Shown: positions 10,808-64,000 of the stretch, in pieces
Layout of the letters: each line of letters starts with the position of its first letter
Numbering within the stretch: the stretch's first letter is position 1
Notes under the pieces: generated by a model
Database searches by the model: none
Told to the model about the DNA's origin: nothing
Seen by the model: the letters and a program-made list of their open reading frames with translations, nothing else
Program-made: the position numbers and the translations under genes
Source of the DNA: Thermoanaerobaculia bacterium
GTDB taxonomy: Bacteria; Acidobacteriota; Thermoanaerobaculia; Multivoradales; Multivoraceae
Direction of reading: 5' to 3'
DNA length: 64,000 nucleotides
NCBI GenBank assembly: GCA_942492505.1
Contig: CALOFD010000012.1
Location: 23,514-87,513 of the forward strand

Positions 10808-12501
10808 TTGCGCAGGGTCCTTTTCCGATCAGCGGCGACGCTCGTCTGCCTGCTGCCGGCGGCAACGCTCTTCGGAGCCGCACCCCGATCCGAGTTCGGA
10901 GATCGCTGGTTCTCGTCCAACGGACCCGCCTGCAGCGTGCTCGGTACCGCCCCATCCACCGTGGAGCAGGTGGCTGTCCGCTGTTCGGCGATCCACTCGG
11001 CCTTCCGGCTGCTGCTCGACGCCGAGGACCTGTCACCGCCCGAGCCGATCGAGATCCTGGTCGTCGACGACTCCATCCGACATCGGCTCGAAGGTCACGA
11101 CGCTGCGCCGGCGGACCTGGGCGTCTCCTGGACGCTCGATCGGCGGGGACCTCTCCTGATCCTCTCGATCGACCCGCCTGCCCTGCTCGAGGCGGCGGCC
11201 GGGCGGATCGCGACCCATCTCTTCGAGGGCTTCCTGCCGACTGCGGGAACCTGGCTCAGTACAGCGCTGCCGGAGGTTCTCGCCCGTGCGGAACTGAGGA
11301 GGACGGGACTGGCCCTGCAGGAGGCTGACGGTGATCCCCAGTTGGAGTTGCTCTATTTCCTGATGGCTCCGGGAAGCGACCGACAGGCCCAGTTCTCTCG
11401 CTATCTCAAGCTCCTGCGGGCCGCAACTCCCGATGCCCTCGCCTTCGACATCGCTTTCGCCGGAGACCTGGACAGCGTCCGAGCGGAGAGCCTGAGGGGT
11501 GCCCCCTCCCAGCCCCCATCCTCGCTCCGATCGCCGCCCGCACAGATGTCGAGCGAACTGCCGGGACTCCGGCGGTCCGCCTGGCGGACGCGATCACCCG
11601 AGTGTCGCCATTCAACACCGTGACGGCCGAGGTCCTCTACAGCGATGTCCTGGCGTCCAGCCCCGAAGATGAGGCCGCCCTCCGGGGTATCGCCGTCGTC
11701 CGGGGTATCGATCGTCGCCATGAGGCCGCTGACCTCGCCTGGGAGCGAGTCCTGCCCGAGGCCGACGACGACGACACCTTCCTGCTCCATGGCTGGTCTC
11801 GACTCGATCGCTTCCTGTCCCTCCCTGGGCGGTGGGAGCGTTCGACCCCGCAGGCCGCCGATCTCTCCCTGATCCAGGCTCGATCCAGCTGCACCCGGGC
11901 CCTGCGAATCGGCGGTGCCAGGCCTGCCGTGCAGCAGTGCCTCGCCGTCGCAGACATGTACCTCCAGCCCGGCCTTCATGACGGCTCTCCACTCGAACGG
12001 CTGTCCTCCGTCCATGCCTGGCGAAAGCGTGACCCAGGCTTCACGAGCGACTGGATTCTCAGTCACGCCTACGCCGGCTTCCCCGAGGAAGCCTGGGAAC
12101 TGCTCTCCACACAGGCCGTTTCCGCAGTGCTTCTTGGCGACGCCCCCGGCCGCACCATGGCGACTCTCGGCGAACTCGCCCTGCATCGCGCGAGGCTGCA
12201 AATTCTCGCCGGCGACATCTCGGCTGCTCGCCAGTCCATCGCCCCGCTCCTGGAGCACGCTCCCGATGATCGCGTGGTGGACTTCGACCGCCAACTGGTG
12301 GCACTCCTCGAGGAGCGGCGACGGGAGGCCTGGATCGAACGCCACAACGAAGCTGCCGTGCTGGTTTCCGAGGGCAGCTACGAGCAGGCGCGGCGGCTTC
12401 TGGACGAACTCTCGGCCGAACCGCTTCCAGACGACATCGCAGAATCCGTCCACCGCCTCATCACGCAGATCGAGGCGGCGCGGCCGTCTCCCACTCCCTG
12501 A
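10808..12501 (+). CDS. hypothetical secreted protein; two ORFs probably joined by a 1-nt indel
   Basis: The TTG at 10808 gives a signal-like N-terminus (RRVLFRSAATLVCLLPAATLFGA). The first frame degenerates after about 11500. The second frame (track ORF 11602..12501) is already open and protein-like from about 11500 (APILAPIAARTDVERTAGTPAVRLADAITRVSPFNTV...). The junction lies at the C-runs near 11493-11515. The C-terminal half is helical-repeat-like. No family assigned. Confidence 0.45.
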
Positions 12502-51407: not shown

Positions 51408-52376
51408 ATGCTCACCCGAAGACTTCTCCAGGGAATCCTCCTTCTCTTCGCCGCCTCGGCCCTGTCCTTCCTGCTTGCAGCCCTGACGCCCGGCGAATAC
51501 TTCGACGAACTGCGCCTCGACCCGAACGTTCCCGAAGACACGATCGAGTCGATGCGCCAGCGCTACGGCGTCGGCGACCCTCTAGCGCAGCGATACCTGC
51601 GCTGGCTCGGCTCGGTGACCCGCGGCGAACTCGGTTTCTCGCTGCGCTACCGAACCGAGGTCAGGCCCCTGCTCCTGCGAAGAGCCGGAAACACACTGCT
51701 GTTGACCGGCCTGGCGACTTCTTGCGCGTGGGCTCTCGCACTGCCGTTCGGTATCTGGGCGGCGACGAGCCCGAAGAAATGGGCTTCCTCCTTCTTCTCG
51801 GGATCGACGTCGCTGCTCCTCGCGATCCCCGATCTCGTCCTCGCCCTGCTCGCCCTGATGCTGGCGATCCGCTCCGGTTGGTTTCCCGTCGGGGGCATGA
51901 GGTCCTCGAACTTCGATTCCCTCGGGCCGATCGCCCGAGCTTCTCGACCTGGGGCATCATCTTTGCTGCCGGCCCTGGTGATCGCGCTCGGACTCCTCCC
52001 GACGCTCTCGCGCCATGTCCGCGCCGCGGTCGGCGAGACTCTCGACGCTCCCTTCGTTCGCGCAGCGCGGGCGAGGGGACTCCCCGAACGGACGATTCTC
52101 TATCGGCATGTCCTGCCGGCCGCTGCCAACCCCCTGATCAGTCTTGCAGGCCTGTCGATCGCCTCGCTGGCCGGGATCTCCCTGGTGGTCGAGGTGGTGC
52201 TGGCATGGCCGGGGATCGGCCCGCTGCTCCTCGAGTCGATCCAGGTCCATGACATCGACCTGGTCATCGGCGGCGTCCTGATCACGACGCTCCTCCTGGT
52301 GATCGGAAACGGACTCGCCGACCTCGCCTTGTGGATGACAGATCCTCGACTTCGAAGGCGCGATCCCTCTCCATGA
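51408..52376 (+). CDS. ABC transporter permease (Opp/Dpp B-type, peptide/nickel family)
   Basis: 322-aa ORF. The N-terminus MLTRRLLQGILLLFAASALSF...PGEYF and multiple TM helices match the OppB/DppB pattern. Confidence 0.88.
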   Translation: MLTRRLLQGILLLFAASALSFLLAALTPGEYFDELRLDPNVPEDTIESMRQRYGVGDPLAQRYLRWLGSVTRGELGFSLRYRTEVRPLLLRRAGNTLLLTGLATSCAWALALPFGIWAATSPKKWASSFFSGSTSLLLAIPDLVLALLALMLAIRSGWFPVGGMRSSNFDSLGPIARASRPGASSLLPALVIALGLLPTLSRHVRAAVGETLDAPFVRAARARGLPERTILYRHVLPAAANPLISLAGLSIASLAGISLVVEVVLAWPGIGPLLLESIQVHDIDLVIGGVLITTLLLVIGNGLADLALWMTDPRLRRRDPSP

Positions 52377-53341
52377 GTTCCCGTACGACCCCGCGCCTGC
52401 TGCCTGCCATCCTCGTTCTGGTCCTCATCCATGCGACAGCACTGCTGGCAGGTTTCTTCGGTCCCTACGAGCCCGCCGAGCAGGATCGATCGCGCCCCAG
52501 CGAGTCTCCGTCTTCGATCGACCTCCACGGCGCCGACGGCCGCGTCGGCCTGTTCGTGGCTGACCCGGGCGACATCGCCACGCCCACAGCTCCTCTCCAG
52601 TTCCTCGTCACACGCGACGACAGGGTCCGCCTACTCGGCGTCGATCCGCCCACCCGACTGAATCTGCTCGGAACCGACTCCCTCGGTCGCGATGTGTTCT
52701 CGAGACTGCTGTGGGGAGGTCGCGTCTCACTCCTCGCCGGTCTGGTCGCAACCTTTCTCTCGATCGCACTCGGGACGACACTCGGAATCGTCGCCGGCTT
52801 CTACGGAGGCCGTATCGACGCCCTCCTGATGCGGGTGGCAGATCTGTTCCTCGCGCTTCCGCTCCTCTATCTGCTTCTCGCGATCCGCGCTCTTCTCCCC
52901 CTGTCGATCTCGACCACCACCGCGTTCCTGCTTCTGATCGGGGTTCTCGGTCTCGCCGGATGGGCTCGACCGGCCCGTCTCGTGCGGGGCGTCGCCCTGG
53001 CCGCACGAGAGCGCGACTTCGTTCTGGCGGCGCGCTCCCTCGGCGCCAGTGACATCCACATCCTGTTTCGCCATGTCCTGCCCCAGACGCGAAGCGTGGT
53101 GCTCACACAGGCCGCTCTGCTCGCGCCGCAGTACGTCCTGGCCGAGGTCGCGCTTTCCTACTTCGGGGTCGGCGTCTCGGAACCCACTCCGAGTTGGGGG
53201 ACCATGCTGGCGGAGGGCGCCTCCTTCGCGGCTCTTTCAGTGCCCCATTGGTGGTTGCTCAGCCCCGCCCTGCTGCTGGTCGCCACGTTCGTGGCGTATC
53301 ATTCCCTGGCGCGATCGCTGGATGGAGGTTCGCACGGCTGA
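52373..53341 (+). CDS. ABC transporter permease (Opp/Dpp C-type)
   Basis: The ATG at 52373 overlaps the preceding stop (ATGA). Contains LLGTDSLGRDVFSRLLWGGRVSL, typical of OppC/DppC. Confidence 0.88.
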   Translation: MSSRTTPRLLPAILVLVLIHATALLAGFFGPYEPAEQDRSRPSESPSSIDLHGADGRVGLFVADPGDIATPTAPLQFLVTRDDRVRLLGVDPPTRLNLLGTDSLGRDVFSRLLWGGRVSLLAGLVATFLSIALGTTLGIVAGFYGGRIDALLMRVADLFLALPLLYLLLAIRALLPLSISTTTAFLLLIGVLGLAGWARPARLVRGVALAARERDFVLAARSLGASDIHILFRHVLPQTRSVVLTQAALLAPQYVLAEVALSYFGVGVSEPTPSWGTMLAEGASFAALSVPHWWLLSPALLLVATFVAYHSLARSLDGGSHG

Positions 53342-53350
53342 GAAGTTCCG

Positions 53351-55105
53351 ATGATTGAAACCGCCGCTCGACGGCCTGCCCGATGCTCCCTCGGACTGCT
53401 CGTGGCCCTCGTTGCCGCCCTGTCATTCGGCTGCGGTGACGCGAGCCCGGAGTCCGCGAGCGAGTCGGTCGAGCTGCCCCTTCAGCGCGGCGGACGGCTC
53501 GTTCTGACCCTGAAGAGCGAACCCGAGAGCTTCAATCCCGTCCTCGCCGTCGGCGCCAGCACGCACCGTATCGTCGATCGAATGCATGGCGACCTCCTGC
53601 ATATCGATCCGTTCACGCAGGAGGTGGTACCAAACCTCGCCGAGTCCTGGGACGTCTCGGCAGATGGCACGGTCTACACGGTTCACCTGCGAAAGGGACT
53701 TCGCTTCTCCGACGGGGAAGTCCTCGACGCAGATGACGTCGTGTTCACCTATCGAGTCCACCTCGATCCGTCGATCGCCAGTCCCCAGAGGGATCTGCTG
53801 TCTCCCGGCGGCACTCCCCTGACGATCGAGAAGGTCGACTCCGATACCGTCGAATTCAGCCTCCCCCGCCCGCTGGCGGCGGGCCCCAGACTCTTCGACT
53901 CCATCGCCATCCTGCCGGAGCACCGACTGCGCGAAGCCTGGTCGAGCGGCCGGCTCCAGGAGACCTGGCAGACCTCGACTCCGGCGTCGGAGATCGTTGG
54001 AGCCGGCCCCTTCACGCTCGGCGAGTACCGCAACGGCGAGTTCCTCGACCTCGACCGAAACCCCTACTACTGGAAGACCGGCGACGACGGCGACAGGCGT
54101 CCCTACCTCGACGGGATCCGCTTCCTCTTCGTCTCCGACGACGACGCTCGCGTACTTCGCTTTCAGGCCGGCGAGGCCCACATCATCGACGATCTCGGTT
54201 CCGACAACTTCGCCGCGCTGAGCAGTTCACAGGCCGACACCGGGATGCGACTCGTCGATGCTGGCCCCTCCCTCGAGCGCGAGATGCTGATCCCCAATCT
54301 CAACGATCTCCCGCCGAGCACCGCACCCGAGCACGTCCAGGCCCAGGCCTGGCTGGAGAGACCCGGCTTCCGCAGCGCCCTCTCCCTCGCCATCGACCGC
54401 GACAGCCTCGTTCGGCTGGCCTATCAGGGGCGCGCCAGCGCTCTGCGATCGAACGTCAGTCCGGGGGATCGCTTCTGGCACAACGATTCCCTGCCACCCC
54501 CGGACCGAGATCTCGCGCGCGCTCGCGAAACACTTGAGGGGGAAGGATTCCGATGGGCCGAAGACCAACTCATCGGTCCTGAGGGTGCCCCCGTCCGACT
54601 TTCGATCCTGACGTCTTCCACGAACTCCAAGCGCCTCAAGATGGCAGCCATCATCGAACAGGACCTGGCGGAGCTGGGGATCGAGGTCCGCGTCGTTTCG
54701 CTGCCCCACGGCGCCGTCGTCGAACGGCTCCTGCAGACCTTCGCCTACGACTTGATCCTCCTCGGCTTCGGAAGCGGTGACGCCGACCCCAATCCCGCTC
54801 TTCCCTTCCTCCTATCCACAGGCGGCCTTCACGTGTGGCGACTGAACGACACCGAGCCCTTGAGCCCCTGGCAGGCCGAGATCGATGCACTCATGAAAGC
54901 TCAACTCGTAGAGACCGACCGACAAGCCCGAAAACGCCTCTACGACCGCGTCCAGGAAATCGTGGCAGAAGAACTCCCCGTCATCCCCCTCGTATCCCCC
55001 CACGTCCTGGTAGGCGCCCAGGCCACCGTCGGCAACTTCCGCCCCGCCATCCTCGAACCGAATGCGATCTGGAACGCCGACGAGTTGTTCCTCGCCTCTC
55101 CCTGA
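53351..55105 (+). CDS. ABC transporter substrate-binding protein, family 5 (peptide/nickel)
   Basis: 584-aa ORF with a lipoprotein-like N-terminus (LVALVAALSFGCG) and SBP_bac_5-like sequence. No ATPase genes follow. Confidence 0.85.
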   Translation: MIETAARRPARCSLGLLVALVAALSFGCGDASPESASESVELPLQRGGRLVLTLKSEPESFNPVLAVGASTHRIVDRMHGDLLHIDPFTQEVVPNLAESWDVSADGTVYTVHLRKGLRFSDGEVLDADDVVFTYRVHLDPSIASPQRDLLSPGGTPLTIEKVDSDTVEFSLPRPLAAGPRLFDSIAILPEHRLREAWSSGRLQETWQTSTPASEIVGAGPFTLGEYRNGEFLDLDRNPYYWKTGDDGDRRPYLDGIRFLFVSDDDARVLRFQAGEAHIIDDLGSDNFAALSSSQADTGMRLVDAGPSLEREMLIPNLNDLPPSTAPEHVQAQAWLERPGFRSALSLAIDRDSLVRLAYQGRASALRSNVSPGDRFWHNDSLPPPDRDLARARETLEGEGFRWAEDQLIGPEGAPVRLSILTSSTNSKRLKMAAIIEQDLAELGIEVRVVSLPHGAVVERLLQTFAYDLILLGFGSGDADPNPALPFLLSTGGLHVWRLNDTEPLSPWQAEIDALMKAQLVETDRQARKRLYDRVQEIVAEELPVIPLVSPHVLVGAQATVGNFRPAILEPNAIWNADELFLASP

Positions 55106-55314: not shown

Positions 55315-58016
55315 GTGCAACTCAGGGTCGAAAGACTCGTTGATGTGGCGAAGCGTGCGGGGGCAAGCAGAACAACGGCCTTCATCTTCAAGGCCGCGGG
55401 AAACCACATCGCTGCGAACACCCGCGACGCGGAGACAGGCCTCAGCCTTCTCTCAGACGCCCTGGAGCTGTTCACATCCCTTGGAGACGACCTACAGGCA
55501 GGGATCACTCGGAGCTGCCTCATTCTTACCTTGGTGGAGACCGGTGATTTTGAGCGGGCGTCGGCAGAAGCCGGAACCGCCCGACAGACCTTCCAGAGAC
55601 TTGGCGATCAACTTCGGCTCGCAAGACTTGACGTGAACGAGGGCAACATCGCCTTCAAACAAGACCGATTCGCCGACTCAGAGCGTCTGTGGACCAGGGC
55701 CTTGGGAACCTTGATGGTTCGAGGCACCACTACCGACATCACCAATTGTCTGATCAACATAGGCTGCAGCAAGGTGCAGACGGGACACATACCGGAAGCC
55801 CTCAGGCTCTTTGAAAGAGCTAGCACCTTCCTTGCCGAGGAGGGACCGAGTCAGGCCAGACTTGTGCTCCTTTACAATCAAGCTTGGGCCCTCATGCACT
55901 GGGGGCATCACTCTCAAGCCCTCTCACGCCTCATGGCCCTAGAAAAGGCCTTTCTGGAAATAGGGAACCACTACTACGAGGGCCTGGTTCTCCTAGCTCT
56001 CGGCCAGATCCTTCTAGATCATTGGCTTCTGAGAGATGCCCGCCGTCGGATCGATCGGGCGCTGTCTCTGTTTGCGCGGCGCCACGCACCCTACGAACGT
56101 GCAAAGGCCTTCTTCCTTCTCGCAGTCTGTGAGTCGTCTTCCGGTGATCTGGATGTGGCAATGCAACTCCTCGATCAGGCCCAAGCTCGCTTTGAGAGAC
56201 TTGGCAATACAGCCTGGCTTCAGAGAATTAGGTTGCAGAAGGGACAGATACTCCTCGCAAGCGGACGGACGGAGCAAGCGCTGCGAATAGCACGACTATG
56301 CGAGTCGGACCTTGGGCCTCCAGCGACACCAGACATCGAATGCCTTTTCGACCTTCTCTACGGCCAATGTCTCGCAGCGACAGGGGAATCAAAACAGACC
56401 TTCGAACTCGCTCGAAGTCTGTTGCCAAGAGTGGTCCTGCTCGATCGAAAGCACCTTGAGATCGAAGCCCTAGCTCTAGTCGGGAGGTCGGCAGAAGACC
56501 TTGGCTTGGACAACCAAGCCGCCAAGGCCTACCTCCAAGCCGCTGCGCTCGTTGAATCCATCAGTGAGTCTCTACCACCACTAGACCTGAGAGGTGGATT
56601 CCTTGCTGGGAAGGTAGACGTCTACCAACGCCTATTTCTTCTGGCAGCTCGAAAGGGGGACGTCATCCGCGCCTTCGCCTCAATCGAGCGCTCCAAGGCT
56701 GTGAGATTTCACTACTACTCGTCGAAGCCGTTCTGGCAAGACACGACTGCAAGGAGCGGCAGCGCGGCTTCCGAGTTGAGTGCCGGGGCTGAAGAACTAA
56801 GAAGACTTTCCCACCAACTTCGTGAACTCCGAGCAAGCGAGCAGCGAAGAGGTGCCTCGCAGATCGGAGATCTCGCCTCAGTCCTTGAGTCCGAAGCCAC
56901 CGAAACGCTGAGGTTCATGGGAGTAAGGGGACACAAGGAAGGAGCAGGTCCGCTCCCTGAGCTGACAGATGTTCAGGAAGCTCTCGGTTCGCAAACTACT
57001 CTGCTGCACTATTACTCCACCGGCGATCAACTTTGGTGCTTGTCAGCCACGCGCGACAGCGCCAATCTGTTCGAGATTGGGAGCTCCTCTGAAATTGCCG
57101 AGGCCCTTCAGCTATTTAGGTACGCGCTAACTCCTGCAGCAGCAGGTAGAGACCAACAAGCCAGAACCAGAGCAGAGCATCACCTCAGTCGACTTCACAA
57201 CCTTCTCCTCGCACCTGTTGAAGGCACGCTACTCGAGCAGCTGATCGTCATTCCCGAGGGGAGTCTTTCCCGGGTGCCGTTCCATGCGCTCCTGGGACCT
57301 GATCGGGAGTACATGATCGATCGACACAGATTGACCGTCCAGCCCTCGGCGCAATGTCTGTCTGAATGCTCCAGTCAACCCGCAAAGAGCATTGGAGCAT
57401 CCCTATTGGTAGGTGTCGGCGACTCAGTAGCTACAGGCATGGGTGCCGAAGCCGAGCAGCTCTCAAGATTGATTCCAGGTGCTCGCCTTCTCCTAGGTCA
57501 CGATGCAACGGCGGCGGTCGTAGCAAACGAGATCGAGTCAGTCCAACTCGTCCACTTTGCCAGTCATGGAATGTTTGAGGAGCTAGGCCTCTCTTCTCCC
57601 ATCTCAGACTCGGTGATGGTCCCTTCTACCTTCACGACTTGGTCGGGCTGGATCTCACAAACATCGAACTTGCGGTGCTGAGCGGATGCAACATGGGGGT
57701 CGAGCCGGAAGGCCCAACGGCATACATGATGGCTTGGCCACATTTCTTAATGGCTTCTGGAGTGCGAGCTGTTGTTTCTGCCCTCTGGCGGGTTGATGAC
57801 GCAGCTAGCGTTTACTTCATGAGGTGCTTCTATGAAGGTCTCATGAGCGGGGTGCCCAAGGACGAATGTCTGAGACGAGCCTGTCTAAGCGTCCGTGAGA
57901 TTCGCAGGCATCCATACTTTTGGGCTCCCTTCGTCCTCGCAGGGTCAAGTGATGCAATTGAGTTTGCCCCCCCGCCCCCTTCTGAGGTTCACGATGTCAG
58001 CCAGCACTTCAGATAG
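55315..58016 (+). CDS. TPR-repeat CHAT-domain (caspase-like) protease, catalytic dyad intact; one frameshift; start unresolved
   Basis: Track ORFs 55315..57681 and 57639..58016. The His motif VHFASHG lies in the first, and the Cys motif LSGCNMG plus the terminal HPYFWAPFVLAG in the second. Adding one C to CCC (57598-57600) joins them (...LGLSSPHLRLGDGPFYLHDLVGLDL...). The same frame is open and protein-like back to 55150 with no ATG/GTG/TTG. Confidence 0.8.
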
Positions 58017-58082: not shown

Positions 58083-60932
58083 GTGCAGAAGGAATTCTCG
58101 GTCGATCTGACCGCAGTCCGCGCTCTCAGAACAGAGAACGAACGTCTTGAGTTCCTTGCTGCGAACCCATTAGCCGTGTCCCGAGAGGGTCTATCGCACT
58201 TAGCGGCAGAGGCAGTAGAACTCCTCTCATCTGATCTTGAAGGCTGCGATGATTTCCTTGAAACCTTGGAGTGGTTTTCCGAAAGAGCGAAGGATGACTA
58301 TTCCAGGGGCAGGGTGTTGCGCGCCAAGGCCAATGCGAGGTACGTGCAGGGGCGCTTGGAGGAGGCTGTAGGAGCATTCGAAGAGGCAGCGAACCTCTTC
58401 GCTTCAGCCGGGGAGGAACTTGACGAAGCAATCACGTACAGCTCCGGCCTTCTCTCGATTCTCCTGACGGGTGATCATCGTCGAGTCGAAGAATGGGCGC
58501 GCCGAGCACGATCGATCTTCGATGCACTCGGGGACGATCTGAGATTAGCTCGGCTGAACTTTAACTACGCGAACGTACTCTTCCGACGAGATCGCTGGGA
58601 GGATGCAGCGAAGAGCTATGAGGCTGCTTATGGAATCTTCAAGCGCCTAGGGAGTCACCGAGACGTCGCGACTTGCCTAAGCAACATGGCCGTATGCCAG
58701 ATAAGCGTTCACAACTCTGACAAGGCGGCCTATTTCTACAGCAGGGCTCGGTCCTACTGTGAGTCTCATGGACTGGCAGTGCTCACCGCGAGAATCGACT
58801 ACAACTATGCCTACCTTTTCTATCTCCGAGGTGAGTACACGACCTCTCTGGAGCTCTTTGAGCAAGCCCGAGAACGCTGCATCGCATTGGGGGACCAATA
58901 CCATCCTGTTCTCTGCAACCTCGACGAGGCAGAAATCTACCTAGAACTGAACCTGACCCAAGAAGCGACCACTCTGGCCTCAAGAGCGCACCAGGGCTTC
59001 GAAAGCTTGGGAATGCCCTATGAGAGCGCGAAGGCTCTTACTCTCTGGGCGATTGCCGTCGGCAGGCAAGGGAAATGGATCGCGGCTCTCGAGATGCTTC
59101 AACGCGCCCGCTCGATCTTTGAGCGAGAAGAGAACGAGGTTTACAAGAGCCAACTAGATCTTCATTCCGGGATAGTGCTTCTCAAGGCGGGCAGACCCTT
59201 TGAAGCTATCCGGTTAGCCAAACGCGCGCAGAAAGGTCTAGCTAGTCTGGGATTGCAGAGAAAGGAGGCCCAAGCATGCCTGCTGATCTGCAAAGGCCGA
59301 CTCGATCAACGGCACTTAGACGAGGCGGAAACAGAGCTTCGGAAAGCCTTCAGCCTTGCATCTGGACCTGGTAGCGCAACCGTTCTTTGGCAGGCCCACT
59401 ACCTCGCCGGAAGAATAGATCTTGAGAGGGGGGATCGAAGTTCAGCGGAACGAGCTTTCCGTCTGGCGCACGAGAGTCTTGAAGAGATCCGAAGCCACGT
59501 ACGTACAGAGGAGCAAAAGATTCCGCTCGTGGACGACAAGCTTGTCGTCTACGAAGAACTTGTTGTCCAACTGGCTTCGGAAACGCAGACTCCTGAGATC
59601 GCGGCGGAGGCCTTCAAGTTCGTCGAGAAGGCCAAAGCCAGGTCTCTCTCTGACATGGTCGCGACACGAGCAGCGACCCTGTCGGAAAGAACGTCAGGTC
59701 GCAGCCAGCTGGCATCCCAAGTCTCAAAGCTCCGGGAGGAGCTGAACTGGTACTACCGCCAGATAGACCTTCAAGAGATGAGGGGAGACGCGCACGAGCC
59801 CGGGAGCATGTCTCCCTTGCTGAATGCGAGCGAGCGTTATGAGGCGGACCTTCTCAAGTCCTTGGGTCGACTCTCGTCGACTGACAGGGAGGTTAGCTCA
59901 CTTCAAGAGGCATTGGTGGTTGATCCGTCTTCTATTCAGGAACTCCTCAGCCAAGATGAAGTCATCCTAGACTTCTATGAGGCCAAGGGAGTTATGTACG
60001 TCGCCACCCTAGATCAGAGTAGCGCGGAGATCATTCCCGCGACGCTCTCCTCTATCGCTAGTGACCTTTATACCGAGCTTCGATATGTAATGAGCCGACT
60101 CCAGGCTGACCCAGACACCGCGCGAAGCCCAAACGATCAAGCCGGCCTTGACTTGCAGCATCTCTTGGAGAGGCTTTTCGACGAGCTCATTTCACCGATA
60201 GCCCACCGCCTCAAACCAAAGCTGGTTGTGGTTCCATGTGGTGCCCTCTTCCACCTACCGTTTCACGCGCTGAACGGCCCCATAGGTCCCTTATCCAAAG
60301 AGCACCAAGTCACCTATTCGCCAAGCGCTACAACATGGTTTCTCTCTCGCTCAAGAGAAGCTTCGTCGAACACTGGTCTCCTCGTCGCGTTTGAACAACC
60401 TCGAATCAGCACTATTGAGGCATGCTTCAGAAACTCTCTGTTCAGGGCTGCAACCTCCCCTAACGATTTTGTCGAGGAAGCTCGTGAAGCAAGGACCATC
60501 TTCGCGGACGGCTCGGCGTCCTATCGACCAGACAATCCGATGTTCTCGACTCTGCGGATTGCCGGCAAAGACTACTCCCTGTTCGATCTTCTGAACTTGG
60601 ACTTGGACGCTCAACTATTCGTGCTTTCAGGGTTTCAGCAGACTTCGTTGGCAGCGAGCAAGGGTGACGAAGTCTTTGGTCTTTACAGGACCCTCCTGTA
60701 CGCAGGCTCACGGGCGATTGTCCACAACCTTTGGCGACCAAGCGCCCGTGCCCAGGAGAAGTTCGTGGTGAGGCATTGGCAAGACTGGCCTCCGGCACCA
60801 GCGTGCAGATCTCATACTCGGAGACGATGGACGAACTCCGTCAAACACTCTCAGCGGTCCTCACGAGTGGGGACCCTTCGTTCTCGTCAACTCAGTAAGG
60901 CCGAGGAGTGTTCAATAGCCGATCTAGCATAA
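58083..60932 (+). CDS. TPR-repeat CHAT-domain paralogue with substituted catalytic residues (predicted inactive); C-terminus frameshifted twice
   Basis: GTG start. It has TPR-like repeats and a CHAT-like C-terminal domain. The His motif position reads IFADGSASY and the Cys motif reads LSGFQQT. The canonical ending (FYEALARLASG...HEWGPFVLVNS) is recovered only through two -1 frame changes near 60765 and 60865, giving a probable true stop at 60916-60918. Confidence 0.78.
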   Translation: MQKEFSVDLTAVRALRTENERLEFLAANPLAVSREGLSHLAAEAVELLSSDLEGCDDFLETLEWFSERAKDDYSRGRVLRAKANARYVQGRLEEAVGAFEEAANLFASAGEELDEAITYSSGLLSILLTGDHRRVEEWARRARSIFDALGDDLRLARLNFNYANVLFRRDRWEDAAKSYEAAYGIFKRLGSHRDVATCLSNMAVCQISVHNSDKAAYFYSRARSYCESHGLAVLTARIDYNYAYLFYLRGEYTTSLELFEQARERCIALGDQYHPVLCNLDEAEIYLELNLTQEATTLASRAHQGFESLGMPYESAKALTLWAIAVGRQGKWIAALEMLQRARSIFEREENEVYKSQLDLHSGIVLLKAGRPFEAIRLAKRAQKGLASLGLQRKEAQACLLICKGRLDQRHLDEAETELRKAFSLASGPGSATVLWQAHYLAGRIDLERGDRSSAERAFRLAHESLEEIRSHVRTEEQKIPLVDDKLVVYEELVVQLASETQTPEIAAEAFKFVEKAKARSLSDMVATRAATLSERTSGRSQLASQVSKLREELNWYYRQIDLQEMRGDAHEPGSMSPLLNASERYEADLLKSLGRLSSTDREVSSLQEALVVDPSSIQELLSQDEVILDFYEAKGVMYVATLDQSSAEIIPATLSSIASDLYTELRYVMSRLQADPDTARSPNDQAGLDLQHLLERLFDELISPIAHRLKPKLVVVPCGALFHLPFHALNGPIGPLSKEHQVTYSPSATTWFLSRSREASSNTGLLVAFEQPRISTIEACFRNSLFRAATSPNDFVEEAREARTIFADGSASYRPDNPMFSTLRIAGKDYSLFDLLNLDLDAQLFVLSGFQQTSLAASKGDEVFGLYRTLLYAGSRAIVHNLWRPSARAQEKFVVRHWQDWPPAPACRSHTRRRWTNSVKHSQRSSRVGTLRSRQLSKAEECSIADLA

Positions 60933-60944
60933 GATCGGTGTGCA

Positions 60945-61655
60945 ATGTCCACCCCATCGAACATGCTCAGCCCCTTGAACAGGAACCCTCGCATAGCCCT
61001 CAAAAAGCTTGAAGAAGAGGTGCGAAAGACAAGAACGGGTGTCATGTACGCTCTGAACATGATGCTTGATCTCAAGGATCTTCGGACCGGTTTCCATGCG
61101 ACCCGTCTCGCAGAGTGGGCAGTGAGGGTTGCCGAAGACGTTGGAGTTACCAAGGAGGATCTCGAAGATATTGAGCGAGCCTCTCTCCTGCACGATATCG
61201 GGAAGATAGGGGTCCCTGACCAAATTCTTCTCAAACCGGGGAAGCTCACAGAATCCGAGCGAGAGCTAGCCGAGAAGCACCCTGAGTTCGGTTGGGCCAT
61301 TCTGCGACCGATCCCTGGCTTTGAGAAAGCTAGCCTCCTTGTGCTCCACCACCATGAACGCTGGGACGGAGGGGGCTACCCGGCAGGTCTAACGGGATCC
61401 GAGATCCCGCTGGGTTCTAGAATCGTGTCGATCGTAGATGCCTACGACGCGATGATCTCGGATCGAGCCTACCGGTCTGGCCTGCCCAAAGAGGAGGCAC
61501 TTAGACGCCTAAGGAAGGATGCGGGGAGCCAGTTCGATCCGGAATTGACCGAGTTTTTTATCCGGCTTGTTGAAAGCGTTGAGGATGATGCCGAGGGCAG
61601 CATGGAACGGGCTATTCCTGACTTCGCGATCGCTCGAGTTCAACAATCCCTTTGA
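60945..61655 (+). CDS. stand-alone HD-GYP domain protein (cyclic-dinucleotide phosphodiesterase family)
   Basis: 236-aa ORF with LLHDIGKIGVPD and HHHERWDGGGYPAGL. There is no receiver or other sensor domain. Confidence 0.88.
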   Translation: MSTPSNMLSPLNRNPRIALKKLEEEVRKTRTGVMYALNMMLDLKDLRTGFHATRLAEWAVRVAEDVGVTKEDLEDIERASLLHDIGKIGVPDQILLKPGKLTESERELAEKHPEFGWAILRPIPGFEKASLLVLHHHERWDGGGYPAGLTGSEIPLGSRIVSIVDAYDAMISDRAYRSGLPKEEALRRLRKDAGSQFDPELTEFFIRLVESVEDDAEGSMERAIPDFAIARVQQSL

Positions 61656-61858
61656 CTCATTGAATCTTGTTCGCATAAAATTGCTCAGACAACCGATTGC
61701 GTTCAGGGGCATCCGCTCCTGAAAGGTAGCCCGACGAAACTCTCCGACTTTGGAGGAGGTCGCTGGTCCTGCCTTTCTAGCCCCTAGGACTTAGGCCAAC
61801 ATAGTAGAGAAGATCTAGAACACCTACCTACCAGTCTCTGGCTGCGTAGAACCGCAAA

Positions 61859-61902
61859 CCCCGCTTCACTCCGGATTCTTGCTGGAGGTGACGGGGGTTT
61901 TT
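61859..61902 (+). terminator. intrinsic-terminator-like hairpin + T-tract just upstream of the micro-ORF cassette
   Basis: CCCCG-ct-TCAC-TCCGG-attcttg-CTGGA-g-GTGA-CGGGG followed by G-TTTTT (61898-61902). About 14 bp are paired and the loop is 7 nt. Confidence 0.55.
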
Positions 61903-61938
61903 GCGTTTATAGGGACTTTAACCAATTTGGGAGAGACG

Positions 61939-61988
61939 ATGAGCACCATCAAGAGTTGGTCAGAGCATTGACTGCATCAAGGAAGTAA
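61939..61988 (+). pseudogene. decayed leading copy of the micro-ORF
   Basis: ATGAGCACCATCAAGAGTTGGTCAGAGCATTGACTGCATCAAGGAAGTAA matches the GGTCAGAGCAT(C/T)GACTGCATCAAGGAA core. However, it is about 7 nt shorter, out of frame (MSTIKSWSEH*), and an extra G destroys the normal stop. Confidence 0.6.
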
Positions 61989-62021
61989 CCCTCAATCCCC
62001 ATCCAAACGGAGACACACACC

Positions 62022-62078
62022 ATGAAGATCAAAACCAGCGTCAAGGTCGGTCAGAGCATCGACTGCATCAAGGAATAA
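62022..62078 (+). CDS. micro-ORF copy 1, 18-aa peptide MKIKTSVKVGQSIDCIKE
   Basis: GGAG lies 9 nt upstream. ATG...TAA, with codon 10 = GGT. Confidence 0.7.
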   Translation: MKIKTSVKVGQSIDCIKE

Positions 62079-62111
62079 CCCTCAATCCCCATCCAAACGG
62101 AGACACACACT

Positions 62112-62168
62112 ATGAAGATCAAAACCAGCGTCAAGGTCGGGCAGAGCATCGACTGCATCAAGGAATAA
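62112..62168 (+). CDS. micro-ORF copy 2, identical 18-aa peptide
   Basis: GGAG lies 9 nt upstream. ATG...TAA, with codon 10 = GGG. Confidence 0.7.
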   Translation: MKIKTSVKVGQSIDCIKE

Positions 62169-62201
62169 CCCTCAATCCCCATCCAACCGGAGACACACAC
62201 C

Positions 62202-62258
62202 ATGAAGATCAAAACCAGCGTCAAGGTCGGACAGAGCATCGACTGCATCAAGGAATAG
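62202..62258 (+). CDS. micro-ORF copy 3, identical 18-aa peptide
   Basis: GGAG lies 9 nt upstream. ATG...TAG, with codon 10 = GGA. Confidence 0.7.
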   Translation: MKIKTSVKVGQSIDCIKE

Positions 62259-62297
62259 CTACCTTTCACACCTCATAAACGATCAGGGAGTTTCACC

Positions 62298-62363
62298 ATG
62301 AAGATCAAAACCAGCGTCAAGGTCGGTCAAGAGAGATCGAGAGGAGTACCCATCCAGGAATAA
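62298..62363 (+). CDS. micro-ORF copy 4, variant 21-aa peptide MKIKTSVKVGQERSRGVPIQE
   Basis: GGGAG lies 7 nt upstream. The first 11 codons match the other copies in amino acid sequence (codon 11 CAA instead of CAG, both Gln), the tail diverges, and the frame and stop (TAA) are retained. Confidence 0.65.
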   Translation: MKIKTSVKVGQERSRGVPIQE

Positions 62364-62396
62364 CCCCGGACACCCAAGCAACCGGAGACACACACC

Positions 62397-62453
62397 ATGA
62401 AGATCAAAACCAGCGTCAAGGTCGGGCAGAGCATCGACTGCATCAAGGAATAG
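62397..62453 (+). CDS. micro-ORF copy 5, identical 18-aa peptide
   Basis: GGAG lies 9 nt upstream. ATG...TAG, with codon 10 = GGG. Confidence 0.7.
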   Translation: MKIKTSVKVGQSIDCIKE

Positions 62454-62461
62454 TCGAATCC

Positions 62462-62608
62462 ATGAAAACAAAGACAAACCTCAAGGCCGGATTCTCTGGG
62501 AGCGTCAAACCGCAGGTGTTTGAACTTCTCGAGACTCTGGTGAATCGACCCTCAGATCATCGATTCACAGTCAAGACTGGCCAGGCCGTTTCGGCCATTC
62601 TCGAATAG
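62462..62608 (+). CDS. 48-aa ORF related to the micro-ORF peptides at both ends
   Basis: MKTKTNLKAGFSGSVKPQVFELLETLVNRPSDHRFTVKTGQAVSAILE*. It starts 8 nt after copy 5, and the AAGGAA inside the copy-5 end could serve as its SD. The N-terminal MKTKTNLKAG and the C-terminal VKTGQAVSAILE parallel MKIKTSVKVG and VKVGQSIDCIKE. Confidence 0.6.
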   Translation: MKTKTNLKAGFSGSVKPQVFELLETLVNRPSDHRFTVKTGQAVSAILE

Positions 62609-62616
62609 CACTCAGC

Positions 62617-62682
62617 GCCGCGCCTGGTCGCGGCGGCTGTGTGAACCGCAGACCGGGGACCTCACCCAGGAGTGGTCTGCGG
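62617..62682. terminator. two GC-rich hairpins between convergent genes (possible bidirectional terminator)
   Basis: GCCGCG-cctggt-CGCGGC (62617-62634) and CCGCAGACC-19 nt-GGTCTGCGG (62646-62682). There is no clear U-tract. Confidence 0.4.
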
Positions 62683-62750
62683 GTGGCGAACAGCCATCTG
62701 GCCGTGGTCTATTCAGCCACGCCCATCCCCCCCGGGGCCTTCTCCCCCGG

Positions 62751-63998
62751 CTACGAGTGACCGACGACTGCCAGGGTCGGTGATCTCGCGATGATCACCT
62801 TGGCTGCGAGCATCGCGCTCTCGCCGTCGAGGCCACCCAGACTCTCGTCCAGGATCGAGATGTCGTGCTCCTGGATCAGGGTTCTCGCAATGAAGACGCG
62901 GCTGCGTTCTCCATGAGAGAGCTGCCAGCCGTTCTCTCCCACCATTTGGAACAGTCCCGACGGCATTCGCTCGAGGAGATCTCCGAGACCGAGTTCCCGG
63001 CAGAGTTCTTCGGCCCTATCGAGATCTTCCTTCATCGGCGGCCAGCGGTGCCCCATGAGGATGTTGAACGCCAACGACTCGCTCAGGATGTGGTTCTCGT
63101 GGAACTGCGGAGCGAGAATCACCGACTTGCGCCAGAATGCCGTGCCGGCACTCGTTCGATCGAGCCCCCTGAACAGTAGAAGCCCTGTCGAGGGACTGCG
63201 AAGTCCGGCAAGCAGGCTGGCCAGCGTCGACTTTCCCGAACCTGAGGGCCCCTCGAGAAGGATCCGGTCGCCCGCTGCGACCTCGAGGTCGAGATCGTCG
63301 ATGACCGGCTGAGTTCTCGAGGCGTACTGAAAGCCGAGTTCCTTCGCCTCCAGAAGCACTCGTCCCCTCGACTGCCCGCGAGTCAAGGCGAGATCGGGAT
63401 CCGATCGGAGAGAAGGCCGTGCTGCCGCGTCGAACATTTCCGCAACCTGATCCCAGGCGATCGAGGCACCCGACAATTGGCTCAGCCCGAGGGTGACTCT
63501 TCGAAGTGCGCCGTAGGCGAGCAAGATCCCTCCAAACGCCACCGCCAGGCTCTCACTCGAGGCACGGTCGCCCACCAGCAGCGGGGCGAGCCCGAGAACC
63601 CCGACGATCATCCAGCCCCGCGGCAGCGCAGATCCAAGACTCGCGGCAAGCCGATCGAGTCCTCGCGAAGCCCGACTGTATGCCTCGACTTCCCGGTCCT
63701 CGTCTTCGTGCCAACGAGCTCTCGATTCCTGGGCCTGACGCGTGCGATGTCCGAGGAGGCTCTCCACCAGAGCGTAGGTCAGACTCAGCCTGCCTTCGGT
63801 CCAGCCCCGTCTTCGGGCCGCGTAGCGACGCCCCACCCAGTAGACCACCACACTCCAGCCGACCAGCAGCAGGGCGTGGAGGGGGCCTCCGGCGCCGAGC
63901 CCCAGTACGACGGCCGCGAAGGCGACCTCGATGGCCCCCAACAGAAGGTGGAAGCCCCCGTTCAGGGCGAGCGACTCCATCGCTTCCGATTCGAGCAC
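62751..63998 (-). CDS. ABC exporter, fused TMD-NBD (N-terminus beyond the window end)
   Basis: The ORF is open to the window edge. About 200 aa of TM region precede the NBD, which has Walker A GPSGSGKST, an atypical signature LSHGERSR and Walker B ISILDES. It converges on the micro-ORF cassette. Confidence 0.85.
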   Translation of the reverse strand: MLESEAMESLALNGGFHLLLGAIEVAFAAVVLGLGAGGPLHALLLVGWSVVVYWVGRRYAARRRGWTEGRLSLTYALVESLLGHRTRQAQESRARWHEDEDREVEAYSRASRGLDRLAASLGSALPRGWMIVGVLGLAPLLVGDRASSESLAVAFGGILLAYGALRRVTLGLSQLSGASIAWDQVAEMFDAAARPSLRSDPDLALTRGQSRGRVLLEAKELGFQYASRTQPVIDDLDLEVAAGDRILLEGPSGSGKSTLASLLAGLRSPSTGLLLFRGLDRTSAGTAFWRKSVILAPQFHENHILSESLAFNILMGHRWPPMKEDLDRAEELCRELGLGDLLERMPSGLFQMVGENGWQLSHGERSRVFIARTLIQEHDISILDESLGGLDGESAMLAAKVIIARSPTLAVVGHS

Positions 63999-64000
63999 CC

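Follow-up and report, generated by a model that had tools for sequence, protein, structure and literature searches.

Several systems are known in which short ribosomal peptides are released from small precursors. Double-glycine (GG) leader peptides, such as ComC/CSP, the class II bacteriocins and LahA/ProcA, are processed and exported by peptidase-containing ABC transporters (PCAT/AMS). Their leaders end in Gly-Gly, Gly-Ala or Gly-Ser, and ComA and LahT recognise a helix with hydrophobic residues at -4, -7 and -12 and Glu at -8 (PMC6363468). In the NHLP/Nif11 bacteriocin export set (NHLM_micro_ABC1, ABC2, HlyD) and the cyanobacterial GG-type bacteriocin clusters (PMC3140520), a pair of ABC exporters, one with and one without a C39 peptidase domain, lies beside several small precursor genes. 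In the RNPP-type peptide quorum sensing of Firmicutes (Rap-Phr, NprR-NprX, PlcR-PapR, TprA-PhrA), a tiny pro-peptide gene sits next to the gene of a TPR-domain receptor, and the C-terminal 5-8 residues are the active part. In the heterocyst patterning of Nostoc, the patS micro-gene has 13-17 codons and its C-terminal short peptide is the signal, while the substrate of the catalytically active PCAT HetC is unknown and an atypical leader has been suggested for it (PMC10986499). Finally, multi-core precursors (cyanobactins and similar) carry repeated cassettes within one ORF.

Here we describe an array of micro-genes in a stretch of 64,000 nucleotides (the window) from a Thermoanaerobaculia bacterium (assembly GCA_942492505.1, contig CALOFD010000012.1, positions 23,514 to 87,513, forward strand). 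Our results indicate that these are peptide genes under selection, each composed of a 10-residue leader and an 8-residue product which is probably cut off and exported by a neighbouring protease-transporter, and that they belong to a large unannotated family of tiny peptide genes in soil bacteria.

The micro-gene array and its neighbourhood

Four 57-nt ORFs encoding the identical peptide MKIKTSVKVGQSIDCIKE could be confirmed. As the earlier note had stated, they differ only at the third base of codon 10 (GGT/GGG/GGA/GGG) and at the stop codon (TAA/TAA/TAG/TAG). A variant ORF encodes MKIKTSVKVGQERSRGVPIQE: its first 32 nt are identical and its tail is unrelated, but it still ends with I-x-E and a stop. 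Tandem repeat analysis with TRF reported one array at 61949-62452 with a period of 90 and 5.4 copies, and the leader pattern occurs 6 times in the window against 0.00 expected. In addition, a sixth ORF sharing the leader and a decayed copy were found. The features of the region are the following (loci of other assemblies are designated by L and a number).

51408..55105 (+): Opp-like peptide importer genes, two permeases and a family-5 binding protein; the linkage is conserved in L121 only and is absent upstream in L130, so the association is tentative
55315..57959 (+): TPR-CHAT protein 1; His is present, the Cys motif (LSGCN) lies in another frame after a frameshift near 57585
58083..60932 (+): TPR-CHAT protein 2; the catalytic His is missing in all loci, and in the window the Cys is missing too and the C-terminus is frameshifted
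60945..61655 (+): HD-GYP (c-di-GMP phosphodiesterase-type) gene, a conserved upstream neighbour, 65-79% identical in L120, L121, L123, L126 and L127 and 66% in L130
61652..61681 (+): promoter-like site (TTGACT, 18 nt, TAAAAT) at the 3' end of the HD-GYP gene, the likely start of the array transcript; equivalent TTGACA/TTGACC-18-TAnnAT boxes lie upstream of the arrays in L120, L121, L123 and L126
61838..61915 (+): conserved 5' leader element (CACTCCGG...GGAGGTG...GGGG hairpin), in the window followed by a U-run and so resembling a terminator or attenuator; conserved in the window, L120, L121, L123 and L126
61939..61988 (+): decayed first copy of the micro-ORF (would read MSTIK-VGQSIDCIKE), broken by two 1-nt insertions, with a premature stop at 61971
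62022..62078 (+): micro-gene copy 1 (GGT, TAA), with a GGAG Shine-Dalgarno at 62009-62012
62112..62168 (+): micro-gene copy 2 (GGG, TAA)
62202..62258 (+): micro-gene copy 3 (GGA, TAG)
62298..62363 (+): variant micro-gene with the same leader and a different 11-residue tail
62397..62453 (+): micro-gene copy 5, the fourth identical peptide (GGG, TAG)
62462..62608 (+): 48-aa precursor MKTKTNLKAG...RFTVKTG|QAVSAILE, with the same leader, an internal leader-like KTG motif and a conserved C-terminal octapeptide
62609..62697 (.): strong terminator-like hairpins between the convergent peptide operon and the ABC gene (-50.9 kcal/mol, z = -3.49, 0 of 200 shuffles fold as well)
62751..64000 (-): ABC exporter (permease/ATPase), cut by the window end

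The ABC exporter is the orthologue of the 705-706-aa ABC that precedes a C39-peptidase ABC gene in L121, L123, L124 and L130. It is 57-74% identical to the syntenic ABCs and 46% identical to the ABC beside a family member in a Chloroflexota MAG. The order of two TPR-CHAT genes, HD-GYP, array, long precursor (48-56 aa, ending KTG|QAVSAILE), ABC and C39-ABC recurs in L121/L122 and L130, and parts of it recur in L120, L123, L124 and L126-L129. Since the PCAT gene itself would lie beyond the window end, its presence next to this array is inferred from synteny. In the orthologous loci the C39 domains keep the Q...DCG, HYV and DP motifs, and the PCAT of L123 is 52% identical over 889 aa to the PCAT beside an unrelated family member, L093. 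No HlyD or outer-membrane partner was found in the window or in the visible parts of the syntenic loci. A PADLOC search with the TPR-CHAT, HD-GYP and ABC genes revealed no defence system. The best named relatives of the HD-GYP protein are from Acidobacteria/Terriglobales MAGs at 63-68% identity, while the exact HD-GYP, 48-aa peptide and binding protein products are not on record.

Selection on the peptide

Within the window the evidence for selection is thinner than the earlier note implied, which had considered three nucleotides at one silent position to be indicative of purifying selection on the peptide and not of an RNA structure or a neutral repeat. Of the single-base changes possible in the ORF 17.5% are silent, or 21.5% with transitions weighted 2:1, hence three independent silent events have P about 0.005-0.01, which is suggestive but not decisive. 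The spacers before copies 1-3 are almost identical too (1-2 differences in 33 nt), so most of the identity among these copies reflects a recent 90-bp duplication, and two hits on the same fourfold site say little about the other sites. However, the spacer before the last copy differs at 8 of 33 positions although its ORF is unchanged.

In order to test the conclusion, orthologous arrays were compared. Syntenic arrays in eight other assemblies carry 1-5 ORFs of the same 18-codon design (L124/L125 are cut just before the array). The 8-residue tail is identical within each of the five arrays that hold two or more complete copies (L121, L123, L126, L128, L130) and differs between genomes. Counting the window, within-array changes in the 8-codon tail are 9 synonymous and 0 non-synonymous (P = 4.9e-7 at the computed silent-site fraction of 0.20; 4.6e-5 at a generous 0.33), while the leader gives 16 synonymous and 10 non-synonymous events. 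Within-array pS in the tail is 0.22 with pN = 0, so gene conversion alone cannot explain the identical peptides. Between genomes the tail changes (QSIDCIKE, QVANAILE, QSVVAILE, QSVAAILE, QSVCHIAE, QTVSSVLE, SHLNHIME) but keeps its length of 8 and the C-terminal [IV]-x-E. For the long precursor, the 50-aa orthologues (window copy not in the count) give pN/pS of 0.09 for the leader, 0.42 for the middle and 0.09 for the C-terminal octapeptide. Thus the conclusion of the earlier note, purifying selection on a translated peptide, is supported, although translation itself is inferred.

The leader MK[IT]KT[SN]xK[AV]G marks at least 119 loci across Acidobacteriota, Myxococcota, Planctomycetota and Chloroflexota, where we estimate about 0.3 expected by chance. 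These loci hold 175 complete ORFs with a median length of 19 aa, and 38 of them carry two or more. A Shine-Dalgarno-like motif precedes 159 of 178 family ORFs, against 9.6% of random positions. The genes often lie beside orthologous exporters, HlyD or TPR regulators: nineteen loci have a C39-ABC in the 8-kb view, 22 have HlyD, and 30 have an HTH-TPR regulator within 1 kb, this last figure without comparison with a genome background. No significant Pfam-A or NCBIfam 20.0 hits were obtained for the 21-, 48- and 50-aa peptides, nor for 108- and 186-aa multi-cassette relatives. Altogether 1276 homologues of a cassette relative were found; of the best 120 listed, the named ones are nearly all 'hypothetical protein' and none has a Pfam domain that covers the cassettes. 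A scan of JGI metagenomes for the exact KVGQSIDCIKE coding pattern gave 0 hits, and a second scan, for KTGQAVxAILE, gave one locus, L123. No description of the family was found in the literature searched.

A putative exported octapeptide compared with known systems

The most plausible explanation, to which we assign a probability of roughly 0.7, is that the array is a set of tandemly amplified, translated micro-genes for a PCAT-processed, exported octapeptide, probably a signal. In the inferred mechanism the operon is transcribed from the promoter-like site at the end of the HD-GYP gene, and each ORF is translated from its own Shine-Dalgarno site. The convergent exporter pair, an ABC permease/ATPase plus a PCAT, would recognise the leader (MKIKTSVKVG), cleave after the conserved K-x-G and pump out the short peptide (QSIDCIKE), while the 48-aa neighbour would be cut at two such sites, releasing a second, more conserved octapeptide (QAVSAILE). 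Several identical copies would raise the dose. The cleavage site is suggested by the observations that conservation stops exactly at the Gly, that multi-cassette relatives repeat ...LKVKTxVKAG before each variable segment, and that the internal KTG of the long precursor precedes an octapeptide homologous to the micro-ORF tails. The product is most likely an unmodified linear signal peptide specific to the genome. It may be sensed by the co-conserved TPR-CHAT proteins, perhaps after Opp-type re-import, with the HD-GYP enzyme in the same circuit. The signalling role is above all an inference. No expression or peptide data exist. The frameshifts in both TPR-CHAT genes of the window and the loss of the catalytic residues of TPR-CHAT protein 2 weaken a CHAT-protease output in this genome, and the Opp linkage is seen in only two loci.

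In common with the GG-leader peptides, the predicted leader would be removed at a small-residue site ending in Gly, has a hydrophobic residue (V/I/L) at -4, and is encoded in several precursor genes with variable cores, next to a dedicated C39-ABC with intact catalytic Cys, His and Asp in the syntenic loci L121, L123, L124 and L130. It is not a canonical GG leader, however: it has only 10 residues, ends V-G in the window and A-G, T-G or S-G in relatives, carries Lys at -7 and Ile/Thr/Val at -8, and stops at -10. The products have only 4-20 residues, and the host phyla are Gram-negative soil groups. The NHLP/Nif11 models are among the higher-scoring hits for the exporters of the family, but the scores are far below the family cut-offs (for example 193 against 853 bits), the precursors lack the 70-90-residue NHLP or Nif11 leader, and no modifying enzymes were detected in the window genes scanned or in the conserved syntenic block. 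As in the RNPP systems, tiny genes lie next to TPR protein genes and the tails diverge in a pherotype-like way. Here, however, the TPR proteins carry CHAT (caspase-like) domains, not HTH or phosphatase domains, RNPP homology is not significant (RNPP_C E = 0.007, 16.2 bits against a cut-off of 26.5), and export would be by PCAT rather than Sec or PptAB. The domain set resembles that of heterocyst patterning, probably also with respect to the CHAT protease HetF, but there is no sequence relationship to PatS (no RGSGR), and the Nostoc genes are dispersed, whereas here they form one conserved cluster. Relatives of the family carry 2-10 cassettes in which a conserved stretch (...NHNQTxxRGLKVKTxVKAG) flanks each short variable core, as in the multi-core precursors, and the 48-aa precursor has two leader-like motifs; no cyanobactin proteases or heterocyclases are present, and in the window the cassettes are amplified as separate genes rather than inside one ORF.

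Alternative explanations

Several other readings were considered and appear very unlikely. A neutral 90-bp repeat with incidental ORFs would agree with the conserved spacers of copies 1-3, the few events in the window and the decayed copy at the 5' edge. It is contradicted by the orthologous arrays, in which the spacers do not align but the 18-codon ORF, the Shine-Dalgarno site, the leader and an identical tail are kept, and by the recurrence of the leader in several phyla. A function as RNA, for example as a structured sRNA or a protein-binding repeat array, could be suggested by the position of the repeats between a promoter-like site and terminator-like hairpins, downstream of a conserved structured element. 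This is not supported, since every repeat unit folds worse than its shuffles (z = +0.5 to +0.9), substitutions concentrate at third codon positions and are silent, and no Rfam match was obtained at gathering score for the whole window or at E <= 1 for 61600-62800; for the upstream element covariation support is weak (1 compensatory pair), and its fold in the window has z = -1.5. A gene on the opposite strand, the 72-aa ORF at 62051-62269 (-), was also considered, because open antisense frames run through the arrays in the window, L121 and L123, and the wobble-aligned antisense frame shows a similar synonymous excess (28 to 8). Antisense coding is excluded, however: that frame has a stop inside copy 1, created by the GGT variant, and stops in both L128 copies; L130 has 9-16 stops in each antisense frame, and the other open antisense frame turns the codon-10 variants into T/P/S changes. 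Regulation of the 48-aa gene by attenuator-type upstream ORFs would fit their position in one transcript, the last stop codon being 8 nt from the next ATG, but there are no alternative hairpins and no runs of a regulatory codon, the peptide sequence and not merely its translation is conserved, the tails are homologous to the C-terminus of the downstream precursor, and the same leader occurs in free-standing genes beside exporters in many phyla. An assembly artefact also seems improbable, as far as can be judged without read data. Short-read contigs of related loci break at the arrays (L124, L125, L128 and L129 start in or just before them), and two frameshifts in nearby genes could point to consensus errors. 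On the other hand, each copy has a unique combination of variants, two copies have unique spacers, five tandem copies occur in L130 on a 6.78-Mb contig which, judging from its name, is a long-read assembly, and the HD-GYP, binding protein and ABC genes align to their orthologues without frame breaks.

Two further possibilities accept an exported peptide but assign it another fate, and both are regarded as unlikely. The tails might be modified before export, as in RiPPs, which would agree with the leader/core layout, the hypervariable cores, the several precursors per locus and the NHLP/Nif11-like export set (C39-ABC, second ABC, HlyD); the S-x-x-C of the window core may also be a lanthionine-like spacing. 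However, no maturase family (radical SAM, LanM/LanB/LanC, YcaO, ATP-grasp and similar) was detected in the window genes scanned or in the conserved syntenic block, Cys and Ser are not conserved among orthologous tails, and a 10-residue leader would seem too short for known RRE-type recognition domains. Alternatively, the peptides might be antimicrobials (class II bacteriocin or microcin-like) with the ABC genes also giving immunity, since a PCAT with a second ABC and HlyD is the classical bacteriocin export set and the cores differ between strains. In this case the products would have only 8 residues here and 4-7 in many relatives (LRIA, YRIQ, SAVWGS), and would be linear, hydrophilic and unmodified; no immunity gene is conserved, and the neighbours are regulators and signalling enzymes (TPR proteins, HD-GYP, sigma-54 activators and ECF sigma factors).

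A more far-reaching hypothesis, which remains tentative, is that the KAG-leader micro-genes are the signal genes of a previously undescribed ribosomal-peptide communication system, widespread in the Gram-negative soil phyla Acidobacteriota, Myxococcota, Planctomycetota and Chloroflexota. Precursors of 14-25 residues, among the smallest secreted gene products, would be cut by a dedicated PCAT and exported, and the products would be sensed by adjacent TPR-domain proteins, with tails diversifying between genomes like pherotypes. In the subfamily of the window these would be the TPR-CHAT proteins, with an HD-GYP c-di-GMP enzyme alongside; elsewhere they would be membrane-anchored HTH-TPR regulators.

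Since gene callers skip ORFs of 14-25 codons, this family is invisible in annotation, although it marks well over a hundred loci in phyla that dominate soils. Peptide signalling through PCAT export is textbook for Gram-positive bacteria, while the physiological substrates of most Gram-negative PCATs are unknown (PMC10986499). The compact, conserved cluster of amplified octapeptide genes, their putative exporter, TPR-CHAT proteins and a c-di-GMP phosphodiesterase makes it directly testable whether such bacteria use short ribosomal peptides as signals. The family would also offer a minimal 10-residue export and cleavage tag, and it is a clean example of selection detectable on an 8-codon product.

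Structure of the micro-ORF array and its orthologues

The region 61939-62608 on the plus strand contains an array with a 90-bp period, for which TRF reported 5.4 copies at 61949-62452. The features recognized in this region and next to it were the following:

62022, 62112, 62202 and 62397 (+), starts of four ORFs of 57 nt, all encoding MKIKTSVKVGQSIDCIKE
62298-62363 (+), variant ORF, which shares the first 32 nt and then encodes a different tail (QERSRGVPIQE) that still ends I-x-E
62462-62608 (+), the next ORF (48 aa), which begins with the same leader (MKTKTNLKAG) and ends ...VKTGQAVSAILE
61939-61988 (+), a decayed copy with two single-base insertions and a premature stop
61838-61915, a conserved element in the 5' leader of the array transcript (CTCTGGCTGT...CACTCCGG-loop-GGAGGTG..GGGG)

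The four ORFs differ only at the third base of codon 10 (T, G, A, G) and at the stop codon (TAA, TAA, TAG, TAG). The description of these copies in the earlier note is exact. The 48-aa ORF and the decayed copy were not part of that description, nor was the GGAG motif located about 9 nt upstream of each ORF. Elements equivalent to the one at 61838-61915 are present in L121 (about 10867-10962), L123 (about 514-609), L126 (about 794-889) and L120 (about 1567-1662), the related loci introduced below. In the window this element is followed by a U-run and so looks like a terminator or attenuator, although the support for a conserved fold is weak, with one compensatory pair.

Within the window the pattern is only partly more than chance. 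The spacers before copies 1-3 differ at just 1-2 of 33 positions, so these copies are the result of a recent duplication or homogenisation and most of their identity needs no selection. The variation amounts to about three mutational events. Since the silent fraction of the possible changes is 17.5%, or 21.5% with a 2:1 transition weight, the probability of all three being silent is about 0.005-0.01. Better internal evidence is provided by the last copy, the ORF of which is unchanged although 8 of 33 spacer bases differ. The copy at the edge decayed through indels.

In order to test the proposal of the earlier note that the peptide is under purifying selection, orthologous arrays were compared. 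Related loci were found through homologues of the HD-GYP gene, through homologues of the 48-aa peptide and through one metagenome pattern scan. This gave eight further assemblies of the same locus (L121/L122, L123, L124/L125, L126, L127, L128, L129 and L130), plus L120, which ends before the array; L124/L125 start just past theirs. Colinearity was confirmed by tblastn, the HD-GYP being 65-79% identical, the ABC 57-74% and TPR-CHAT2 42-46%. The seven assemblies in which the array is visible show 1-5 ORFs of the same design, and five of them hold two or more complete copies.

Table. Micro-ORFs in orthologous arrays (leader followed by tail).
L121: MKVRT(N/S)..AG followed by QVANAILE, x3, plus MRSSGVKSG followed by QVTNAILE
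L123: three copies with ...KAG followed by QSVVAILE
L126: QSVAAILE x2
L128: QSVCHIAE x2
L129: QTVSSVLE
L130: MN(V/I)KTNVKAG followed by SHLNHIME, x5

The tail in these arrays always has eight residues and ends [IV]-x-E. Among the full-length 18-codon copies it is identical within a genome, while it differs between genomes; QSIDCIKE, the tail of the window, is the most divergent. The first ORFs of the arrays (L121:10929-11042; L127:1530-1680; L130:10929-10982 and 11216-11269) have shorter, divergent leaders (MRSSGVKSG, MSRITVKTG, MKNLVLKTG, MYQPHTKTG) but keep x-K-x-G and the ...ILE tail, and the decayed copy of the window looks like this type. L130 also has a second long precursor, ending TG followed by NCVAAILE.

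Counting minimal events within arrays gave 9 synonymous and 0 non-synonymous changes in the tail (P = 4.9e-7 at the computed silent-site fraction of 0.20, and 4.6e-5 at 0.33), and 16 synonymous and 10 non-synonymous changes in the leader. In the Nei-Gojobori pairwise comparison the tail had pS = 0.22 and pN = 0 within arrays, and pN/pS = 0.44 between loci, while the pN/pS of the leader was 0.18 within arrays and 0.20 between loci. Since the copies have diverged at silent sites, gene conversion alone cannot explain the identical peptides. These data indicate that the peptide is under purifying selection within each genome and diversifies between genomes. The interpretation of the earlier note is therefore supported, decisively by the orthologous arrays rather than by the window alone.

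Other readings of the repeats were also considered. A function as RNA is not supported, since the repeat units fold worse than dinucleotide shuffles (z = +0.5 to +0.9), whereas the hairpins after the 48-aa ORF are strongly structured (z = -3.5), and Rfam found nothing. A mechanical 72-aa ORF (62051-62269, minus strand) runs antisense through copies 1-3, and the wobble-aligned antisense frame mimics the synonymous excess (28 to 8). However, this frame carries a stop in copy 1 of the window, created by the GGT variant, and in L128, and L130 has 9-16 stops in every antisense frame. This ORF is thus an artefact of the stop-free repeat. Without read data, an assembly artefact is made less likely by the unique combination of variants in each copy and by the five-copy array on a 6.78-Mb contig (L130), which, judging from its name, comes from a long-read assembly. 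Several short-read contigs of related loci (L124:1-60, L125:1-60, L128:1-40 and L129:1-60) start inside or just before the arrays, so these repeats tend to break assemblies, copy numbers in MAGs may be underestimated and the copy number is the least secure feature.

Genomic context and the wider family

The conserved block consists of two TPR-CHAT genes, HD-GYP, the array and the long precursor, then on the minus strand an ABC of about 706 aa and a C39-peptidase ABC (PCAT) of 866-901 aa. The window ends inside the first ABC gene. The C39 domains keep the Q...DCG, HYV and DP catalytic motifs. Mobile elements sit inside the block: in L130 (14218-18808) DDE transposase and IS21-type genes lie between the ABC and the C39-ABC, and in L121 (2308-3741) a DUF222/HNH gene lies between the binding protein and TPR-CHAT1.

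In the window both TPR-CHAT genes (55315-57959 and 58083-60932) are disrupted. CHAT1 shifts frame near 57585, which puts its Cys motif (LSGCN) in another frame, and the C-terminus of CHAT2 shifts frame twice near 60780-60855. CHAT2 lacks the catalytic His in the window, L121 and L130, and in the window it lacks the Cys as well. Although decay and general assembly error could not be told apart, this looks more like decay of the CHAT genes, since the neighbouring HD-GYP, binding-protein and ABC genes are intact.

A degenerate DNA pattern for M-K-[IT]-K-T-[SN]-x-K-[AV]-G hit at least 119 loci (L001-L119) in one-genome-per-species GTDB contigs, while by our estimate about 0.3 would be expected by chance. 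The hosts are mainly Acidobacteriota, Myxococcota, Pirellulaceae and Chloroflexota. The 175 complete ORFs have a median length of 19 aa, and 38 loci hold two or more. A Shine-Dalgarno-like motif was found upstream of 89%, against 9.6% of random positions. The tails are hypervariable, but some types recur across different genomes, such as the hexapeptides xAxWGS (L014, L028, L041, L051, L082, L092, L106, L108, L118), SYR(A/V)RGTSGGF (L012, L015, L093, L101, L109), Gly-rich GGGxF/WxG in Pirellulaceae and tetrapeptides such as LRIA, MRVA and YRIQ in Acidobacteriaceae. Arrays in these loci hold different tails, unlike the identical copies in the subfamily of the window. Some relatives (L016, L032, L033, L071, L074, L085, L103) are multi-cassette proteins of 80-190 aa that repeat ...NHNQTxxRGLKVKTxVKAG before each short variable core, and some single-core ORFs end in an NHN(Q)T.. 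follower, which suggests a second, C-terminal processing site and a cyanobactin-like cassette logic.

The neighbours were examined by clustering the ORFs in the 8-kb surroundings of the loci. A C39-ABC was present in 19 loci, an ABC of this kind in 23, HlyD in 22, sigma-54 activators in 10 and ECF sigma factors in 7. The commonest neighbour, found in 38 loci (L064:1809-3527 and 37 others) and within 1 kb in 30 of them, is a roughly 570-aa HTH-TPR regulator with an N-terminal HTH, an apparent transmembrane helix and a TolB-like plus TPR region. Judging from the sequence, a membrane anchor appears to lie between the HTH and the TPR part, and the protein is a candidate periplasmic peptide sensor. 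The exporters are orthologous across the family: the PCAT of L123 is 52% identical over 889 aa to the PCAT of the family locus L093, and the ABC of the window is 46% identical to a Chloroflexota ABC.

Comparison with known systems

As inferred here, the system works like GG-leader peptides exported by PCATs (PMC6363468), and its exporters score among the higher NCBIfam hits to the NHLP-type ABC1, ABC2 and HlyD models, although far below the curated cut-offs. The leader, however, lacks the defining features of GG leaders, having 10 residues, x-G rather than G-[GAS], and no -7, -8 or -12 determinants. The system resembles RNPP/Phr cassettes in logic only, not by demonstrable homology. It shares a domain set with the Nostoc PatS, HetC and HetF parts; the substrate of HetC is still unknown and an atypical leader has been considered (PMC10986499).

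No Pfam-A or NCBIfam 20.0 model matches the peptides or their long relatives. In the databases 1276 homologues of a cassette relative were found; of the best 120 listed, the named ones are nearly all 'hypothetical protein' and none has a Pfam domain that covers the cassettes. No description of the family was found in the literature searched, which was incomplete, thus prior description elsewhere cannot be excluded. What is already known is the export of leader peptides by PCATs, while the micro-genes reported here, with their different leader, belong to a large unannotated family.

Proposed processing and role of the peptides

The ORF architecture, the translation signals, the selection on the peptide, the conserved exporter neighbourhood and the intact protease motifs are supported by the sequences. 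It is very likely that the ORFs are translated and selected. It is inferred that the PCAT cuts after the conserved K-x-G and exports the tail, and we put the probability that the peptides are cleaved and exported by the adjacent PCAT system at about 0.65. [quoted passage not shown] In the 50-aa orthologues of the long precursor the leader, the internal motif and the C-terminal octapeptide are strongly constrained (pN/pS 0.09, 0.16 and 0.09), while the middle is looser (0.42). Since no modifying enzyme is conserved nearby, and Cys and Ser are not conserved in the tails, a linear peptide is expected, possibly with N-terminal pyroglutamate where it starts with Gln.

The tandem identical copies would act as dosage amplification. 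That the product is a signal sensed by the TPR proteins is the most speculative step and remains tentative. It rests on the tiny size of the products, on the pherotype-like divergence between genomes, on the presence of regulators rather than immunity genes as neighbours and, in this subfamily, on the co-conserved TPR-CHAT and HD-GYP genes, plus an Opp-like importer in two loci.
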